A DNA stretch of 64,000 bases from Eledone cirrhosa (lineage: Eukaryota), in contig OZ024744.1 of assembly GCA_964016885.1 (NCBI GenBank), positions 98,084,001 to 98,148,000 of the forward strand, given 5' to 3'. A program made the translations under genes and the position numbers. Below are positions 1,355-56,435 of the stretch, one piece after another (position 1 is the stretch's first letter; each line of letters starts with the position of its first letter). The notes beneath the pieces are model-generated. The model was not told where the DNA came from. It ran no database searches and saw nothing but the letters and a program-made list of their open reading frames with translations.

Positions 1355-3350
1355 TAATAATGAAATTATTGTTTACAGTGCTCAGGTGCACTACAACTCA
1401 TCAAAGGTGCATGTATAGTACATAGAATAATTGTTTCTACTTTTGGCACAAGGCCAGCAATTATCCCAGTGTATTACTGGTACTTTATTTTATCGACCCC
1501 ATAAGGATGAAAGGCAAAGTTAACCTCGGTGGGATTTGAACTCAGAATGGCAAGGGCCGTAACTCTATGCTTGGCGTCCGACCCTCTGCCGATACTGCCA
1601 ATCCATGTCCAAATGTCAGGAAAGTGAACAGTGTACGAGTCATGATATACATGTGCGTATGGAGGGGGGACATCAGGTTAGCGAATCTCAGGAAACATGG
1701 AGGTTTTAAAGGATGCAGTGTCTCGGCAGCTAACAACTGATGCAGGTAGTTTGTTCCATGGGGGTTTTAAAGGATGCAGTGTCTCGACAGCTAACAACTG
1801 ATGCAAGTAGTTTGTTCCATGGAGGTTTTAAAGGATGCAGTGTCTCGACAGCTAACAACTGATGCAGATAGTTTGTTCCATGGAAGTTTTAAAGGATGCA
1901 GTGTCTCGGCAGCTAACAACTGATGCAGGTAGTTTGTTCCATGGGGGTTTTAAAGGATGCAGTGTCTCGGCAGCTAACAACTGATGCAGGTAGTTTGTTC
2001 CATGGGGGTTTTAAAGGATGCAGTGTCTCGACAGCTAACAACTGATGCAGGTAGTTTGTTCCATGGAGGTTTTAAAGGATGCACTGTCTTGACAGCTAAC
2101 AACTGATGCAGGTAGTTTGTTCCATGGAGGTTTTAAAAGACGCAGTGTCTCGACAGCTAACAACTGATGCAGGTAGTTTGTTCCATGGGGGTTTTAAAGG
2201 ATGCAGTGTCTCGGCAGCTAACAACTGATGCAGGTAGTTTGTTCCATGGGGGTTTTAAAGGATGCAGTGTCTCGAGAGCTAACAACTGATGCAGGCAGTT
2301 TGTTCCATGGAGGTTTTAAAGGATGCAGTGTCTCGACAGCTAACAACTGATGCAGGTAGTTTGCTCCATGGAGGTTTTAAAGGATGCAGTGTCTCGACAG
2401 CTAACAACTGATGCAGGTAGTTTGCTCCATGGAGGTTTTAAAGGATGCAGTGTCTCGACAGCTAACAACTGATGCAGGTAGTTTGCTCCATGGAGGTTTT
2501 AAAGGATGCAGTGTCTCGACAGCTAACAACTGATGCAGGTAGTTTGTTCCATGGAGGTTTTAAAGGATGCACTGTCTTGACAGCTAACAACTGATGCAGG
2601 TAGTTTGTTCCATGGAGGTTTTAAAAGATGCAGTGTCTCGACAGCTAACAACTGATGCAGGTAGTTTGTTCCATGGGAGTTTTAAAGGATGCAGTGTCTC
2701 GGCAGCTAACAACTGATGCAGGTAGTTTGTTCCATGGGGGTTTTAAAGGATGCAGTGTCTCGAGAGCTAACAACTGATGCAGGCAGTTTGTTCCATGGAG
2801 GTTTTAAAGGATGCAGTGTCTCGACAGCTAACAACTGATGCAGGTAGTTTGCTCCATGGAGGTTTTAAAGGATGCAGTGTCTCGACAGCTAACAACTGAT
2901 GCAGGTAGTTTGCTCCATGGAGGTTTTAAAGGATGCAGTGTCTCGACAGCTAACAACTGATGCAGGTAGTTTGCTCCATGGAGGTTTTAAAGGATGCAGT
3001 GTCTCGACAGCTAACAACTGATGCAGGTAGTTTGCTCCATGGAGGTTTTAAAGGATGCAGTGTCTCGACAGCTAACAACTGATGCAGGTAGTTTGTTCCA
3101 TGGAGGTTTTAAAGGATGCAGTGTCTCGACAGCTAACAACTGATGCAGGTAGTTTGTTCCATGGAGGTTTTAAAGGATGCAGTGTCTCGACAGCTAACAA
3201 CTGATGCAGGTAGTTTGTTCCATGGAGGTTTTAAAGGATGCAGTGTCTCGACAGCTAACAACTGATTTGCTCCATGCTTCAGCAACTCTGAGCGTGAACA
3301 AATGTTTCCGAAAGTCATCGGAGTTATGGTGTTTTCTGACTTTGTTGGCA
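1355..3350 (-). mobile_element. CR1-like LINE 3' fragment interrupted by a SINE and the satellite
   Basis: Homologous to 17580-17995 and 18756-19310. Confidence 0.75.
1696..3265. repeat. 61-bp tandem satellite, ~26 copies, derived from a CR1-like LINE 3' end
   Basis: Unit catggaggttttaaaggatgcagtgtctcgacagctaacaactgatgcaggtagtttgttc; the minus strand encodes WNKLPASVVSCRDTASFKTSM. Confidence 0.95.
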
Positions 3351-5748: not shown

Positions 5749-8700
5749 GAAAGACACCCACACTGATTTCAGTGGGAAGTAAGTTCTTTTCTTCAGTTTC
5801 TTCCTTTTTTTTTTTTTTTTCGTGAGCTATCAATTAAACTTACCTCCTAATATGGACTTCTTTCCCCGGGAAAGGAAGAGTTCTCGGACTTTTCACACAC
5901 AGCCACAGTGAGTTTACTTTACCATTTCATTTTCCCTTGTTTTGGGGTGTGTGTTTTTGCCCGTATGTTACCAACTGATCTTATCTCCGAACATGCTGCA
6001 AAGGAACTTTTTTCCGGAAAAGGGAGGGGAAAAGGGGAGCTGGAACCTGCTACTATTCAGGACTTTTCTTTACCCATAACTCTTACTCTAACCCTAAACC
6101 TGACCCAAACCCAAGCCACACACTAACCCTAACCCTGACCCAAACCCCAGCCATAAGCCTAACCCTAACCCTGACCCAAACCCCAGCCATAATCCTAACC
6201 CTAACCCTGACCCAAACCCCAGCCATAATCCTAACCCTAACCCTGACCCAAACCCCAGCCATAAGCCTAACCCTAATCCTGACCCAAACCCCAGCCATAA
6301 TCCTAAGCCTAACCCTGACCCAAACCCCAGCCATAATCCTAATCCTAACCCTGACCCAAACCCCAACCATAATCCTAACCCTAACCCTGACCCAAACCCC
6401 AGCCATAATCCTAACCCTAACCCTGACCCAAACCCCAGCCATAAGCCTAACCCTAATCCTGACCCAAACCCCAGCCATAATCCTAACCCTAACCCTGACC
6501 CAAACCCCAGCCATAAGCCTAACCCTAATCCTGACCCAAACCCCAGCCATAATCCTAACCCTAACCCTGACCCAAACCCCAGCCATAATCCTAACCCTAA
6601 CCCTGACCCAAACCCCAGCCATAATCCTAACCCTAACCCTGACCCAAACCCCAGCCATAAGCCTAACCCTAATCCTGACCCAAACCCCAGCCATAATCCT
6701 AAGCCTAACCCTGACCCAAACCCCAGCCATAATCCTAATCCTAACCCTGACCCAAACCCCAGCCATAATCCTAACCCTAACCCTGACCCAAACCCCAGCC
6801 ATAATCCTAACCCTAACCCTGACCCAAACCCCAGCCATAAGCCTAACCCTAATCCTGACCCAAACCCCAGCCATAATCCTAACCCTAACCCTGACCCAAA
6901 CCCCAGCCATAAGCCTAACCCTAATCCTGACCCAAACCCCAGCCATAATCCTAACCCTAACCCTGACCCAAACCCCAGCCATAAGCCTAACCCTAATCCT
7001 GACCCAAACCCCAGCCATAATCCTAACCCTAACCCTGACCCAAACCCCAGCCATAATCCTAATCCTAACCCTGACCCAAACCCCAGCCATAATCCTAACC
7101 CTAACACTGACCCAAACACCAGGCATAATCCTAACCCTAACCCTGACCCAAACCCCAGCCATAATCCTAACCCTAACACTGACCCAAACCCCAGCCATAA
7201 TCCTAATCCTAACCCTGACCCAAACCCCAGCCATAATCCTAATCCTAACACTGACCCAAACACCAGGCATAATCCTAACCCTAACCCTGACCCAAACCCC
7301 AGCCATAATCCTAACCCTAACACTGACCCAAACCCCAGCCCTAATCCTAACCCTAACACTGACCCAAACCCCAGCCCTAATGCTAATCCTAACACTGACC
7401 CAAACCCCAGGCATAATCCTAACCCTAACCCTGACCCAAACCCCAGCCATAATCCTAACCCTAACACTGACCCAAACCCCAGCCCTAATGCTAATCCTAA
7501 CACTGACCCAAACCCCAGGCATAATCCTAACCCTAACCCTGACCCAAACCCCAGCCATAATCCTAACCCTAACACTGACCCAAACCCCAGCCCTAATGCT
7601 AATCCTAACACTGATCCAAACCCCAGGCATAATCCTAACCCTAACACTGACCCAAACCCTGGCCATAATCCTAACCCTAACACTGACCCAAACACCAGGC
7701 ATAATCCTAACCCTAACCCTGACCCAAACCCCAGCCATAATCCTAACCCTAACACTGACCCAAACCCCAGCCCTAATGCTAATCCTAACACTGACCCAAA
7801 CCCCAGCCCTAATGCTAATCCTAACACTGACCCAAACCCCAGGCATAATCCTAACCCTAACACTGACCCAAACCCTGGCCATAATCCTAACCCTAACACT
7901 GACCCAAACACCAGGCATAATCCTAACCCTAACACTGACCCAAACCCCAGCCATAATCCTAATCCTAACACTGACCCAAGCCCCAGCCATAATCCTAATC
8001 CTAACCCTGACCCAAACCCCAGCCATAATCCTAGCCCTAACCCTGACCCAAACCCCAGGCATAATCCTAACCCTAACCCTGACCCAAACCCCAGCCATAA
8101 TCCTAGCCCTAACCCTGACCCAAACCCCAGCCATAATCCTAACCCTAACCCTGACCCAAACCCCAGCCATAATCCTAACCCTAACCCTGACCCAAACCCC
8201 AGCCATAATCCTAACCCTAACCCTGACCCAAACCCCAGCCATAATCCTAACCCTAACCCTGACCCAAACCCCAGCCATAATCCTAACCCTAACCCTGACC
8301 CAAACCCCAGCCATAATCCTAACCCTAACCCTGACCCAAACCCCAGCCATAATCCTAACCCTAACCCTGACCCAAACCCCAGCCATAATCCTAACCCTAA
8401 CCCTGACCCAAACCCCAGCCATAATCCTAACCCTAACCCTGACCCAAACCCCAGCCATAATCCTAACCCTAACCCTGACCCAAACCCCAGCCATAATCCT
8501 AACCCTAACCCTGACCCAAACCCCAGCCATAATCCTAACCCTAACCCTGACCCAAACCCCAGCCATAATCCTAACCCTAACCCTGACCCAAACCCCAGCC
8601 ATAATCCTAATCCTAACCCTGACCCAAACCCCAGCCATAATCCTAACCCTAACCCTGACCCAAACCCCAGCCATAATCCTAACCCTAACCCTGACCCAAA

Positions 8701-9550
8701 CCCCAGCCATAATCCTAACCCTAACCCTGACCCAAACCCCAGCCATACTCCTAACCCTAACCCTGACCCAAACCCCAGCCATAATCCTAACCCTAACCCT
8801 GACCCAAACCCCAGCCATAATCCTAACCCTAACCCTGACCCAAACCCCAGCCATAATCCTAACCCTAACCCTGACCCAAACCCCAGCCATAATCCTAACC
8901 CTAACCCTGACCCAAACCCCAGCCATAATCCTAATCCTAACCCTGACCCAAACCCCAGCCATAATCCTAACCCTAACCCTGACCCAAACCCCAGCCATAA
9001 TCCTAACCCTAACCCTGACCCAAACCCCAGCCATAATCCTAATCCTAACCCTGACCCAAACCCCAGCCATAATCCTAACCCTAACCCTGACCCAAACCCC
9101 AGCCATAATCCTAATCCTAACCCTGACCCAAACCCCAGCCATAATCCTAACCCTAACCCTGACCCAAACCCCAGCCATAATCCTAACCCTAACCCTGACC
9201 CAAACCCCAGCCATACTCCTAATCCTAACCCTGACCCAAACCCCAGCCACAACCTAACCCCCAGGAAGTGAGTGAAAAGTCCGGTGGTCTGCCTTCTTGT
9301 CCCCAACATTTTACGGGGGAAAAGTCCTTTGCAGATGTTTCAAGAGCACCCGAAAAAAGGCAAAAAACAAACGAGGGAAAATGATATGGGAAAAACACGG
9401 GCGGGGGAGAAAAGTCCGAAGGTCCTTCCTCACGCCTCTCCTTTTCCATGGGTAAAAAAGTCCTTAGGACCCTTTTAGGAGGTATGTTTAATTGATAGCA
9501 CAATAAAAATATATATATATTTCCCACTGAAATCCCTGGAGGTGTCTTTC
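5749..9550. mobile_element. Non-autonomous element with ~300-bp imperfect TIRs enclosing the telomere-like array
   Basis: TATA-GAAAGACACC...GGTGTCTTTC-TATA; mirrored blocks GATTTCAGTGGGAA, GCTATCAATTAAAC.TACCTCCTAA and GGACTTTT. Confidence 0.7.
6086..9261. repeat. 36-bp telomere-like satellite, ~88 copies
   Basis: Unit CCTAAC CCTAAC CCTGAC CCAAAC CCCAGC CATAAT, equivalent to six degenerate TTAGGG hexamers. Confidence 0.97.
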
Positions 9551-17995: not shown

Positions 17996-18519
17996 TTATA
18001 AGCAGAATGATGAGAGTACTTGCCATCTGATGAACATTCAAACAGCTATGAAACAGGCAATAGAAATCTCTTATTATTTTCTGTTTGAAGAGGATAACAG
18101 GATGTTTTCACATTTATTTACATTTTCACAGCAAGAATTATACTGTAGTTATACCTAGATTAAACTTATCTTAGATTTCAATTTTAAAAATATCCATCGT
18201 AACCACTTTTTTTGTTTTTATTCTGTAACTCCTGAGGGAATTGTAGGAGTGCTGTGTTGACATGCGGCGTTCCAAGGGCATTTTTTATACCTGACAGAGC
18301 CCCTCTCCATTCCAAGTCTTCCAGCAGATTTCTTCCAGAGAAGGATAAGGAGAGTGAAAAAATGGAAGTGGGGAAAGAGATATAGAGGAAGAATCGACCC
18401 CAGTACTAGACTGGTACTTTTTTTTTATATCAACCTTGAATGGATATCCAATTTTTATATATTCCATTTAAATATAAATAAAATACAGCACACAAGACAA
18501 AAATTTGTTTTTAGAAATA

Positions 18520-18529
18520 TTTATTTATT
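18520..18529 (-). terminator. Polyadenylation signal (overlapping AATAAA)
   Basis: The + strand reads tttatttatt; a U/GU-rich tract lies downstream on the minus strand. Confidence 0.65.
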
Positions 18530-18582
18530 TCATAAAAATGTTGTTGAAAGAATTTCAAACTTGTCAGCATTGGTTAATTTGT

Positions 18583-18655
18583 CCATTGAAAGCTATCATA
18601 GTCATGCCATTCCCAAGAAGGGTTTTTCCCATGTCTATTCATAAAGCAACAATCA
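18583..18655 (-). promoter_or_regulatory. SECIS element (form 2-like)
   Basis: Minus strand reads GCUUU AUGA AUAGACAUGGG AAAAA CCC UUCUU GGG AAUGG CAUGACUA UGAU AGC. It has the AUGA/GA quartet, 11 nt to the unpaired AA, helix UAG-A-CAUG/CAUG-A-CUA and an apical CCC/GGG minihelix. Confidence 0.85.
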
Positions 18656-18755
18656 GATAAACCAACACCAAGTTGTTTGCTGGAAAATAGAAAAGTGAAA
18701 GAAAACATTAATTGCATGAGAAATATTTCTAAAAATAAATTATCATTTTAATTAG

Positions 18756-20380: not shown

Positions 20381-20515
20381 TGATGGTAATGAAAATGATG
20401 ATGATGATGATCACTTTAAAACAAGTATTTTTTTTTTGTAGAACCAGTTTCAGGTATTTTGGTATCCAAAGGGTTAAGTTAATAAGGACTTACACTTCTT
20501 TTTCTCAAAAATAAT

Positions 20516-20593
20516 TTATTTCTTCAATGCAGCTTTAACTCCACTTAAAATGCGGTCATATTTTTCATCAGTGTTAACATAACCATCGCCATT
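20516..20593 (-). CDS. SELENOW: SelW coding exon 5 NGDGYVNTDEKYDRILSGVKAALKK* (exon continues as UTR to the donor at 20494)
   Basis: ttttcag|AATGGCGATGGTTAT...AAGAAATAA, then 22 nt of UTR and gtaagt. Confidence 0.92.
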   Translation of the reverse strand, partial: NGDGYVNTDEKYDRILSGVKAALKK

Positions 20594-22222: not shown

Positions 22223-22763
22223 TGAAGATATACAGTACAAATGACAAGCTTCTCTAATTTGCCATTAACAATGATGATATATATATATGCATGTATGTAT
22301 GTATGTATGTATGTCTATGGTGGTGCTACAACAACAAAAGCTCTCAGTCCGCCATGTAGAGTGATCCTACTAGTAACTTGACAAAAAACCACCCAGCCCA
22401 TCCTGTTAGATAGTCAAGCTGGTATCATCATCATCGTCATCATCATCATTTTCCCTGCTTGCAAGGCTGGGACGGGAACTGATTCTGGCTTGATTTCTAC
22501 AGCTGGATGCCCTTCCTAACACCAACCTCATTTACAGTGAGTGCTGGGTGCTTTTTTGCCGTGGCACCTCCACGACCACTTTGCAGTGGAATGATATGGG
22601 CCCCAGTCCCTATCATCTCATTTCTACAGCTGAGTAAACTGGAGCAATGTGAAATAAAGTGTCTTGCTCAAGGAAACAACACATCACCCAGTCTGAGAAT
22701 TGAACTCACAACCTTTCGATTGCAAGGCCAATGCTCTAACCACTAAGCCATGTGCCTCCATTT

Positions 22764-23464: not shown

Positions 23465-23542
23465 CTTTTTGGAATGAAGCATTTTACCACCAACTACGCT
23501 CACTTCAAGCCAACCAGTTTGACTTGGAGTAGCTTCACAACT
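23465..23542 (-). CDS. SELENOW: SelW coding exon 4 (78 nt) SCEATPSQTGWLEVSVVGGKMLHSKK
   Basis: ttttgcag|AGTTGT...AAAAAG|gtatgt; carries the Rdx-family TG.(F/L)EV motif; lies inside ORF 23327..23548. Confidence 0.93.
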
Positions 23543-24206: not shown

Positions 24207-24655
24207 ATAAGCAGACTCCTACAATTTTATGTCTGAAAAAAGGGCAAAAACCCAAACCTTATTTACATAGAATATTAAGTTGGTGAAAATCATCAAAATA
24301 TTGACCCCGAATATAAGCGAACCCCCTCTTCTCCCATTGATTTTTTGTCATATATTCTTCGGCTTATAATTGACTATATCTGGTGATAATGTGGTTTCCT
24401 GTGGTACAGAATGTTAAGACTTAATGTGGTTTCGTGTGGTACAGGATGTTGCGGGTTAATGTGGTTTCATGTGATACAGGATGTTAATAGTTAAATATAA
24501 GCTGATACAAATATAAGCCAACCCCACTATTTTATATCTGAGAAATGGGCAAAAAACCCAAACCTTATTTACAAAGAATTTTAAGTTGGTGAAAATCATA
24601 AAATATTAACCCCGAATATAAGTTGTCACCTCACCCCCCTCTATTTCACCATCAA

Positions 24656-27961: not shown

Positions 27962-28015
27962 AAACTCAAGCATGTCAGGAAAATCCATTTCCAACAAGCG
28001 CTTTAGTTCTCGATA
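27962..28015 (-). CDS. SELENOW: SelW coding exon 3 (54 nt) YRELKRLLEMDFPDMLEF
   Basis: aaaatag|TATCGAGAA...CTTGAGTTT|gtgagt, phase 0/0; resembles the SelW L..(D/E)FP..L segment. Confidence 0.9.
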
Positions 28016-30029: not shown

Positions 30030-33000
30030 TATATGAGATACAAGGACAGCATCAAGAACAACCTCAAAGAGCTGACATTTGATAAAGACAACTGGGAGGA
30101 GATAGCTTTAAATAGGGCTGAGTGGAGAAAGTACATAAAGGGCAGTTGCAAAACTTTTGAGGAATGTCGTCTAGAACATAAACAACTGAAGTGTCAGCTC
30201 CGGAAGGGCTGTGGACACAGTCTAGATGAAGTCATCAGTAGCTGGACATGTAATTTCTACCAGTGTGTACTCCTCTCAAAGGCTGGCTATGTTAATCACC
30301 TGAAGTCATCAGTAGTCAGACATGTAATTTCTACCAGTGTGTACTCCTCTCAAAGGCTGGCTATGTTAATCACCTGGAGTCATCAGTAGCTGGACATGTA
30401 ATTTCTACCAGTGTGTACTCCTCTCAAAGGCTGGCTATGTTAATCACCTGGAGTCATCAGTAGTAGGACATGTAATTTCTACCAGTGTGTACCCCTCTCA
30501 ATGGCTGGTTATGTTAATCACCTGGAGTCATCAGTAGTAGGACATGTAATTTCTACCAGTGTGTACTCCTCTCAAAGGCTGGCTATGTTAATCACCTGGA
30601 GTCATCAGTAGTAGGACATGTAATTTCTACCAGTGTGTACCCCTCTCAATGGCTGGTTATGTTAATCACCTGAAGTCATCAATAGCTGGACATGTAATTT
30701 CTACCAGTGTGTACTCCTCTCAAAGGCTGGTTATGTTAATCACCTGGAGTCATCAATAGCTGGACAGGTAATTTCTACCAGTGTGTACTCCTCTCAAAGG
30801 CTGGCTATGTTAATCACCTGAAGTCATCAGTAGTCAGACATGTAATTTCTACCAGTGTGTACTCCTCTCAATGGCTGGCTATGTTAATCACCTGAAGTCA
30901 TCAGTAGCTGGACATGTAATTTCTACCAGTGTGTACTCCTCTCAAAGGCTGGCTATGTTAATCAGCTGGAGTCATCAGTAGCTGGACATGTAATTTCTAC
31001 CAGTGTGTACTCCTCTCAAAGGCTGGTTATGTTAATCACCTGAAGTCATCAGTAGCTGGACATGTAATTTCTACCAGTGTGTACTCCTCTCAATGGCTGG
31101 TTATGTTAATCACCTGAAGTCATCAGTAGCTGGACATGTAATTTCTACCAGTGTGTACTCCTCTCAATGGCTGGCTATGTTAATCACCTGAAGTCATCAG
31201 TAGTCAGACATGTAATTTCTACCAGTGTGTACTCCTCTCAAAGGCTGGCTATGTTAATCACCTGGAGTCATCAGTAGTTGGACATGTAATTTCTACCAGT
31301 ATGTACTCCTCTCAATGGCTGGTTATGTTAATCAGCTGGAGTCATCAGTAGTCAGACATGTAATTTCTACCAGTGTGTACTCCTCTCAAAGGCTGGTTAT
31401 GTTAATCACCTGGAGTCATCAGTAGTAGGACATGTAATTTCTACCAGTGTGTACCCCTCTCAAAGGCTGGCTATGTTAATCACCTGAAGTCATCAGTAGT
31501 CAGACATGTAATTTCTACCAGTGTGTACTCCTCTCAAAGGCTGGTTATGTTAATCACCTGAAGTCATCAGTAGTCAGACATGTAATTTCTACCAGTGTGT
31601 ACTCCTCTCAAAGGCTGGTTATGTTAATCACCTGAAGTCATCAGTAGTCAGACATGTAATTTCTACCAGTGTGTACTCCTCTCAAAGGCTGGTTATGTTA
31701 ATCACCTGAAGTCATCAGTAGTCAGACATGTAATTTCTACCAGTGTGTACTCCTCTCAAAGGCTGGTTATGTTAATCACCTGAAGTCATCAGTAGTCAGA
31801 CATGTAATTTCTACCAGTGTGTACCCCTCTCAAAGGCTGGCTATGTTAATCACCTGAAGTCATCAGTAGTCAGACATGTAATTTCTACCAGTGTGTACTC
31901 CTCTCAAAGGCTGGTTATGTTAATCACCTGAAGTCATCAGTAGTCAGACATGTAATTTCTACCAGTGTGTACTCCTCTCAAAGGCTGGTTATGTTAATCA
32001 CCTGAAGTCATCAGTAGTCAGACATGTAATTTCTACCAGTGTGTACTCCTCTCAAAGGCTGGTTATGTTAATCACCTGAAGTCATCAGTAGTCAGACATG
32101 TAATTTCTACCAGTGTGTACTCCTCTCAAAGGCTGGTTATGTTAATCACCTGGAGTCATCAGTAGTAGGACATGTTATTTCTACCAGTGTGTACTCCTCT
32201 CAAAGGCTGGTTATGTTAATCACCTGGAGTCATCAGTAGCTGGACATGTAATTTCTACCAGTGTGTACTCCTCTCAAAGGCTGGCTATGTTAATCACCAG
32301 AAGTCATCAGTAGCTGGACATGTAATTTCTACCAGTGTGTACTCCTCTCAAAGGCTGGCTATGTTAATCACCAGAAGTCATCAGTAGTCAGACATGTAAT
32401 TTCTACCAGTGTGTACTCCTCTCAAAGGCTGGTTATGTTAATCACCTGAAGTCATCAGTAGCTGGACATGTAATTTCTACCAGTGTGTACTCCTCTCAAA
32501 GGCTGGCTATGTTAATCACCTGGAGTCATCAGTAGCTGGACATGTAATTTCTACCAGTGTGTACTCCTCTCAAAGGCTGGCTATGTTAATCACCTGGAGT
32601 CATCAGTAGTTGGACATGTAATTTCTACCAGTGTGTACTCCTCTCAAAGGCTGGTTATGTTAATCACCTGGAGTCATCAATAGTTGGACATGTAATTTCT
32701 ACCAGTGTGTACTCCTCTCAAAGGCTGGCTATGTTAATCACCTGAAGTCATCAGTAGCTGGACATGTAATTTCTACCAGTGTGTACTCCTCTCAAAGGCT
32801 GGTTATGTTAATCACCAGAAGTCATCAGTAGCTGGACATGTAATTTCTACCAGTGTGTACTCCTCTCAAAGGCTGGCTATGTTAATCACCAGAAGTCATC
32901 AGTAGTCAGACATGTAATTTCTACCAGTGTGTACTCCTCTCAAAGGCTGGCTATGTTAATCACCTGAAGTCATCAGTAGCTGGACATGTAATTTCTACCA

Positions 33001-33725
33001 GTGTGTACTCCTCTCAAAGTCTGGCTATGTTAATCACCTGAAGTCATCAGTAGCTGGACATGTAATTTCTACCAGTGTGTACTCCTCTCAAAGGCTGGTT
33101 ATGTTAATCACCTGGAGTCATCAGTAGCTGGACATGTAATTTCTACCAGTGTGTACTCCTCTCAAAGGCTGGTTATGTTAATCACCTGGAGTCATCAATA
33201 GTTGGACATGTAATTTCTACCAGTGTGTACTCCTCTCAAAGGCTGGTTATGTTAATCACCTGAAGTCATCAGTAGCTGGACATGTAATTTCTACCAGTGT
33301 GTACCCCTCTCAAAGGCTGGTTATGTTAATCACCTGAAGTCATCAGTAGCTGGACATGTTATTTCTACCAGTGTGTACTCCTCTCAATGGCTGGCTATGT
33401 TAATCACCTGGAGTCACATGAAAGGATAACTACCCACAACACCACTCAACAAAGACCTGGTGAAACAACGTGTGTGATATGCTACAAAGTGTGTAGAACT
33501 AATTCTAGTTCCAGACTAAAAAGACACATGGAGGTACATAGAGATTGTGTCCTACAAGGTGACACTACCAGTCCTGTGGAAAGCACAACTCTATTCTGTC
33601 ACCTGTGTTGTAAACCATGCAGCAGGTCTACAGCTGGCCTACAAAGTTATGGACAGGGATAAGATGACAATGAAGAATCAGTAAGAGACGGCAATCGTCT
33701 GTAAAGATGCTGCAAGCATCATATA
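30030..33725 (+). mobile_element. RTE/BovB-like LINE 3' end with C2H2-like fingers, split by the 74-bp satellite
   Basis: RYKDSIKNNLK..WEEIALNRAEWR before the array; AGYVNHLESH..CVICYKVC..LKRHMEVH..CHLCCKPC after it. Confidence 0.75.
30227..33417. repeat. 74-bp tandem satellite, ~43 copies, derived from a LINE zinc-finger segment
   Basis: Unit tgaagtcatcagtagctggacatgtaatttctaccagtgtgtactcctctcaaaggctggctatgttaatcacc. Confidence 0.95.
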
Positions 33726-39815: not shown

Positions 39816-39840
39816 CTTCCCCTCGTAACCTCACGCACCA
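39816..39840 (-). CDS. SELENOW: SelW coding exon 2 (25 nt) with in-frame TGA = Sec at 39831-39833
   Basis: Minus strand reads ttcttcaattttcag|T GGT GCG TGA GGT TAC GAG GGG AAG|gtaaga, giving (C)-G-A-U-G-Y-E-G-K, phase 2 to 0. Confidence 0.92.
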
Positions 39841-52766: not shown

Positions 52767-53115
52767 TGGAGGCACATGCTTAGTGGTTAGAGCATTGGAC
52801 TTGCAATCGAAAGGTTGTGAGTTCAATTCTCAGACCAGGTGATGTGTTGTTTCCTTGAGCAAGACACTTTATTTCACATTGCTCCAGTTTACTCAGCTGT
52901 AGAAATGAGATGATAGGGACTGGGGTCCCTATCATTCCACTGTAATGTGGTCGTGGAGGGTCCATGGCAAAAAAAAGCACCCAGCACTCACTGTAAATGA
53001 GGTTGGTGTTAGGAAGGGCATCCAGCTGTCGAAATCAAGCCAGAATTAGTTCCCGTCCCACCCTTGCAAGCAGGGAAAAGCGGACGTAAAAAGCGGACGT
53101 AAAATGATGATGATT
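52767..53115 (+). mobile_element. tRNA-derived SINE family 2 with CORE-like domain and RTE tail. Full copies: 13143-13482-, 22430-22760-, 50220-50551-. Head-only or variant copies: 3716-3837+, 5030-5143-, 29385-29487+, 57120-57365-
   Basis: A box (G)GCTTAGTGG, B box GAGTTCAATTC, CCTTGAGCAAGACACTT, and tail CGTCCCACCCTTGCAAGCAGGGAAAAGCGGACGTAAAATGATGA. Confidence 0.85.
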
Positions 53116-56370: not shown

Positions 56371-56435
56371 TATTTTGTCTGATGAAGGCATACCATAATT
56401 TAACATGGTATCCTTGAAATATGTATAATAAAATA
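56371..56435 (+). ncRNA. Minimal type I hammerhead (family A, diverged subfamily)
   Basis: TATTTTGT CTGATGA AGGCATACCAT..ATGGTATCCTT GAAA TATGTA TA ATAAAATA; the stem changes relative to 42553 keep the pairing. Confidence 0.75.

Follow-up and report, generated by a model that had tools for sequence, protein, structure and literature searches.

A probable type II SECIS element in a separate 3′UTR exon of the SELENOW gene of Eledone cirrhosa

The minus-strand hairpin at 18583..18655 of the DNA studied here is very probably a working type II SECIS element of selenoprotein W (SELENOW), by means of which the UGA at 39833-39831 would be read as selenocysteine. The DNA, henceforth the window, comprises 64,000 nucleotides of the Eledone cirrhosa genome (GCA_964016885.1, contig OZ024744.1, 98,084,001 to 98,148,000). 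Positions refer to the window, and the features of the gene within it are on the minus strand. The gene which carries the hairpin is likely the single SELENOW (SelW1-type) gene of this genome. The feature is real, correctly interpreted, and ordinary. The original prediction implied a surprise in a separate SECIS exon at a distance of 21 kb. Such an exon is a described structure of SelW genes (accessible part of Mariotti et al. 2012, PMC3316567), and the 21 kb are intron.

The exons were assigned as follows. Exon 6 (18504..18679) is exclusively 3′UTR, with an AG acceptor before 18679; its 3′ end is the end of a spliced contig and not a mapped cleavage site. Exon 5 (20494..20593) carries the last 25 codons, the stop codon TAA at 20518-20516, 22 nt of UTR and a GTAAGT donor. 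Exon 4 (23465..23542) has 78 nt, i.e., 26 codons, and exon 3 (27962..28015) has 54 nt, i.e., 18 codons. Exon 2 (39816..39840) is 25 nt long and contains the in-frame Sec TGA within a CxxU motif. Exon 3 is taken from the spliced contig, exons 4 and 5 from the contig and from homology, and exon 2 from the end of the contig together with prediction. A candidate for exon 1, with 47 coding nt and a GTAAGT donor, lies outside the window 33 kb upstream of exon 2 (L026:8909-8863, i.e., G000:C28:98156909-98156863). It was chosen by prediction instead of reads, as the best candidate when the window and the 80 kb upstream of it were considered; those within the 64-kb window were all poor. With this putative exon 1 the gene spans about 54 kb up to exon 6, and the reading frame has 93 codons with a single internal stop, the TGA at codon 19, three residues past Cys16. 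The coding exons are all open and have canonical splice sites. A further exon candidate at 24232 was dropped because the spliced contig skips over this site.

Three public runs from one study (X1, X2, and X3) cover the stretch, and none is on record as RNA. A 437-nt contig in X3 connects exons 3 to 6 through three GT..AG joints, with no other letters in the listed pieces; none of these three joints was seen in X1 and X2. The loose end of the contig, 22 nt, is exon 2 including the TGA and has one place of match in the window. The exon 2 side of the contig amounts to 24 letters, which is under the bar of 31 letters set for a bridge, yet it matches exactly at the predicted junction. The splice evidence thus is one contig from one study and from a run not recorded as RNA, and contigs report neither strand nor expression level. 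A processed copy as the origin of the spliced contig was searched for in the genome and none was found; nor did the genome searches return a second copy of SELENOW, which indicates a single one. As a side observation, the spliced contig starts at 39840 one base inside exon 2, on the third base of the Cys codon; a synonymous variant or the use of another first exon may lie behind this start.

In the spliced RNA the UGA and the SECIS are separated by 284 nt, i.e., by more than the 51-111 nt asked of a type II element. The 21 kb of the original prediction stands as a genomic distance, but not as the distance in the message. That the SECIS has a 3′UTR exon to itself was borne out, as exon 6 is non-coding, is joined in the spliced contig and is preceded by an acceptor.

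PDB searches with exon 4 and exon 5 each had 2NPB, selenoprotein W, as their only match (E 0.021 for exon 4 and 0.0056 for exon 5). Compared to 7 full-length relatives from metagenome contigs, the predicted protein has an identity of 40-56%. In all 7 the Cys and the TGA of the CxxU motif align with C16 and U19, the Cys codon here being dependent on the predicted exon 1. P0007, the only relative which was scored whole, reaches 69.4 bits with TIGR02174 (cut-off 34.2) and matches 2NPB at 1.4e-22 compared to 2.4e-4 for C17orf37. Judged by its sequence the gene appears to be closer to SelW than to MIEN1/Rdx12. Pfam searches with single exons gave no match in any of 3 queries, a genome scan for Rdx (PF10262) missed the locus, and word-based protein searches with exon 4, which are weak searches, returned no close relative. 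Three of six phmmer matches were examined, i.e., all except P0001, P0002, and P0004: P0003 is a repeat, and P0005 and P0006 are ORFs in genomic sequence which cover the same exon. Further exons of the Rdx family are present in the genome (L002:1501-1608, L003:1501-1635, and L004:1501-1581), of which we take two to be SelW2/MIEN1-like and one SelT-like.

The machinery for selenocysteine incorporation is encoded in the same genome. A tRNA-Sec with a TCA anticodon was identified at 77.7 bits in 2 of 4 loci scanned. Genes for SepSecS and for eEFSec (domain 4) are present, and an SBP2-like gene has an L7Ae-domain exon with SBP2 as the best PDB match (1.8e-11). SBP2 binds the kink-turn core of a SECIS, and eEFSec delivers the Sec-tRNA. 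The original prediction had connected the hairpin with the TGA at 39831-39833 by inference. This connection is supported by the spliced contig which both share, the homology of exons 4 and 5, the TGA in the 7 relatives and the machinery genes. Of note, the two tRNA-Sec genes (G000:C23:15059770 and 15118228; L034 and L035) have equal scores and are positioned 58 kb apart on opposite strands.

After splicing, the hairpin would follow the in-frame UGA at the above distance of 284 nt and would there recruit SBP2 as well as eEFSec with its Sec-tRNA. The UGA would then be decoded as selenocysteine, and a CxxU redox protein with a predicted length of 93 residues would result. The last exon junction follows the true stop by 22 nt and the Sec UGA by 250 nt. 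According to the 50-nt rule for nonsense-mediated decay (NMD), as presented in the available part of PMC5397149, the true stop would escape decay, and the Sec UGA would trigger it when selenium is short.

The hairpin has the sequence parts of a type II SECIS. The minus-strand AUGA begins at 18642. The 5′ side of the core is A-UGAA (18638..18642) and the 3′ side, by sequence and predicted fold, is UGAU (18595..18598); UGAA/UGAU with the preceding A matches the UGAN/KGAW of type II elements (PMC3753652, in part). The same source describes the eukaryotic core as a kink-turn formed through G·A/A·G pairs, a shape which the core presumably adopts here as well. A run of five adenosines (18623..18627) follows 11 nt above the core, where ~11-13 nt are expected, and is predicted to be unpaired with probabilities of 0.87-1.0. 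In the predicted fold helix II consists of 8 canonical pairs (P 0.84-0.99) and one A·A mismatch, and is capped by two G·G oppositions, 18629/18607 and 18628/18608. The apical minihelix, helix III (18612..18622), is predicted from CCC/GGG with pair probabilities of 0.97-0.98 and closes a 5-nt loop. ViennaRNA folds helix I, helix II, internal loop, and helix III at -13.4 kcal/mol, with both G/G oppositions and the A run in an open 7x5 internal loop. The same pairs are predicted within the spliced 3′UTR of 198 nt, helix I at P 0.64-0.74. Two overlapping polyadenylation signals AATAAA (18520..18529) start at 18529 and 18525, the first one 54 nt beyond the SECIS element. Coordinates and predicted fold thus agree with the arrangement read from the letters at the outset, i.e., AUGA-N11-AA, a paired helix and an apical minihelix upstream of AATAAA, and the two G/G oppositions at the top of helix II were found as well.

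With UGAN/KGAW, unpaired apical adenosines, helices I-III and the location in a 3′UTR the element resembles the type II SECIS family (RF00031; PMC3753652, in part). It differs by an Rfam score of 21.5 bits, which is below the cut-off, by a helix II of 8 canonical pairs and by two consecutive mismatches, a property which lowers the grading by SECISearch3 (same source). A set of SelW-like genes from metagenome contigs (L038-L054) shares the CxxU with TGA and a SECIS-like hairpin after the stop with covarying helix II; most of these have 9-11 canonical pairs in helix II. The pair counts (alignment A3) come from 9 relatives which were chosen for fitting the SECIS pattern and are biased toward structure; the window element was excluded. 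Helix II of the element is weaker than in most of these 9 relatives. The folding energy of its upper part is -8.6 kcal/mol compared to -8.3 to -20.7 in the relatives, i.e., it is the second weakest of 10.

One may ask whether this is a real but weakened SECIS with low read-through, such that the majority of transcripts would terminate at the UGA and be degraded. This would make SELENOW a strongly selenium-dependent, low-priority selenoprotein, and it is a variant of the main reading which does not exclude it. A short helix II capped by G·G/G·G, the energy just mentioned, and the low model scores (21.5 bits with Rfam and 10.3 bits with a model of the relatives) point in this direction, as does the drop of mouse Selenow mRNA upon failed recoding (PMC5397149, in part). 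On the other hand, the core and helix III are intact, as are the free adenosines and their 11-nt spacing; in the same comparison the SECIS of L042 is equally weak and L051 has more ungapped mismatches. ViennaRNA treats G·G as unpaired and may underrate such a helix. On balance we consider a weakened element somewhat unlikely, and we retain the working SECIS as the preferred reading.

How well can the element be distinguished from chance by its shape? The match to Rfam SECIS_1 (18585-18650) is the best of 3 Rfam matches within 601 nt around the element. The Rfam check proposed in the original prediction points to the expected family, but at 21.5 bits against a cut-off of 35 the element is not an Rfam-grade member; at this curated cut-off no SECIS is found in the 64-kb window. 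The low standalone score is due to helix II, which is short and has G·G/G·G at its top. An E-value scan of 22 kb did not list the SECIS_1 match to the element, probably as an effect of filtering. When SECIS_1 was applied to 15 loci of relatives, of which 10 contain a candidate according to the descriptor, matches were listed for 2 (31.8 and 23.0 bits), and no locus reached 35 bits. A covariance model built from the SECIS elements of 9 relatives gives the element 10.3 bits, rank 6 of 11 window matches, with E 7.1. The z-score of folding is -0.80, with 43 of 200 shuffles folding as well. A descriptor which asks for RUGA, AA after 11-13 nt, KGAW, helix I, and 8 or more of the 9 pairs of helix II matches the real spliced 198-nt 3′UTR once and 41 of 10,000 dinucleotide shuffles (192 of 10,000 when loosened); it also matches 3 further sites in the 64-kb window, counting both strands. 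These counts flatter the element because the descriptor was defined after the element had been seen. Shape alone sets the element apart from chance only modestly, and the case for a SECIS therefore rests on its context.

The context bears on the proposal that the hairpin is a chance look-alike and that the gene either is a pseudogene, or terminates at the TGA, or relies on a different SECIS downstream. In favor of such a view, false positives with higher scores exist in this genome and the score alone fails to single out the element. Yet the hairpin is the sole descriptor match in a spliced UTR which ends at AATAAA, the coding exons show open frames and canonical splice sites, the TGA is conserved in all 7 relatives, and the position within the exon agrees with that in mammals and in L042. 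A chance origin is accordingly very improbable. Least probable of all is a switch at the apex, in which helix III and a GGG-A5-CCC hairpin alternate and tune activity: the same C3 run is indeed flanked by two G3 runs, but the GGG-AAAAA-CCC hairpin put forward as a competitor in the original prediction is negligible in the folding model (-7.4 compared to -13.4 kcal/mol, i.e., 6 kcal/mol worse, pair probability 0.003), and the adenosines are unpaired in either fold, so that switching would not hide them.

The reading as a working SECIS in SELENOW agrees with the mammalian gene structure. Mammalian SelW has six exons, and exon 6 is 3′UTR only and harbors the SECIS with ~38 nt from the exon start to the core; split UTRs are also reported for SelH, SelT, SelV, and TR3 (both PMC3316567, as far as available). 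The layout of exon 6 equals that of mammalian SelW, i.e., a SECIS in its own exon is the known SelW layout. Here, the A of AUGA is base 38 of exon 6. If exon 1 is as predicted, both genes have six exons, five of them coding, with a SECIS exon which is UTR only, and in both exon 1 ends at the CxxU motif; further, the 284 nt are inside the mammalian UGA-SECIS range of 207-5207 nt (same source). Differences are the long introns (a gene of ~54 kb), the 15 residues which the putative exon 1 contributes compared to about 9, and exon 4, which in the alignment with 2NPB has 26 codons, one more than in mouse.

Evidence on the age of the 3′UTR intron comes from 6 relatives with intron-containing or genomic sequences, in which the sites were predicted from sequence. 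L042 has a donor 15 nt past the stop, an acceptor, and the SECIS at base 40 of its predicted last exon. L045 and L046, two near-identical contigs, show a donor-like GT 33 nt past the stop, and in L040 a GT is seen by eye at the same place; all three contigs end with no SECIS found on them. L052 is uninformative on this point. In L047 the SECIS appears to sit in the exon of the stop codon, and Ciona SelW1 has the ORF and two SECIS elements in one exon without a UTR intron (PMC2874816, available part). Since the unrelated genomic contig L042 shows the same predicted intron and spacing, the UTR intron of SelW may be very old and kept within an NMD-safe distance, yet it is not universal. Separately, the SelW-like gene at L047:238-716 has introns which are very short and a SECIS which is strong at 31.8 bits; a quick look revealed no obvious CxxU TGA in its exon 2 region.

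A more far-reaching idea is that this is an ancient non-coding intron from the common ancestor with mammals, which was held at <50 nt from the stop and at ~38-40 nt before the core because its splicing matters. Through splicing at this intron, SBP2 or an exon-junction complex would be deposited on the SECIS region, and selenium-dependent decay would be tuned in this way. We regard this as unlikely at present. No account of a SelW 3′UTR intron in invertebrates was found in a literature search with subscription journals mostly outside its scope, and one may be in print; invertebrate gene structures, possibly including such introns, are dealt with in PMC3473315 (seen in part). With these data the known exon layout of SelW, together with its UTR intron, is extended to one more animal. 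They also provide the correct annotation of a selenoprotein gene which is small, has a TGA in frame and includes an exon of 25 nt; genes of this type tend to be missed by gene finders. If selection were shown to act on the UTR intron across animals, this intron would be a convenient system for testing whether splicing near a SECIS influences recoding or decay.

The genome-wide comparison shows how misleading SECIS model scores are in repeat-rich genomes, where a likely true element ranks below LINE look-alikes. A genome-wide search with RF00031 missed the element; 129 of 57,266 candidates were scored, which gave 39 matches, none above cut-off. Twenty loci were retrieved, 19 of them copies of a single LINE-like ORF; the remaining one is a degenerate LINE-like element. 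The best SECIS_1 matches of the genome (27-33 bits) are located in LINE-like repeats and outscore the SELENOW element. Two distinct LINE-like families (L006-L009 and L011-L025 at about 1500-1562, and L010:1501-1564) carry an in-frame SECIS-like hairpin. The pattern AUGAUGA...AAA...GGGA...CUGAUG is positioned ~30-40 codons upstream of the first endonuclease motif, the motifs being assigned by eye. In the larger family there is no conserved upstream TGA, the upstream stops being mostly TAG, and Sec recoding is therefore unlikely. Both retrotransposon families appear to share a kink-turn element; transposons could spread SECIS elements, as speculated in PMC8557442 (seen in part).

Several repeats were observed within the window. 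Two SECIS-descriptor matches at 56382 (plus strand) and 56216 (minus strand) form an inverted pair in intron 1 and are probably repeat ends. Weak tRNA-like matches at 22689-22752 (minus strand, 29.9 bits) and 52778-52833 (plus strand, 32.9 bits) are in very deeply covered repeats and are likely heads of tRNA-derived SINEs. Long homogeneous tandem arrays are present at 30227-33416 within intron 2 (74-nt unit, 43 copies), at 1696-3266 (61-nt unit, 26 copies) and at 6088-9260 (36-nt unit, 88 copies), the latter with telomere-like CTAACC at its start.
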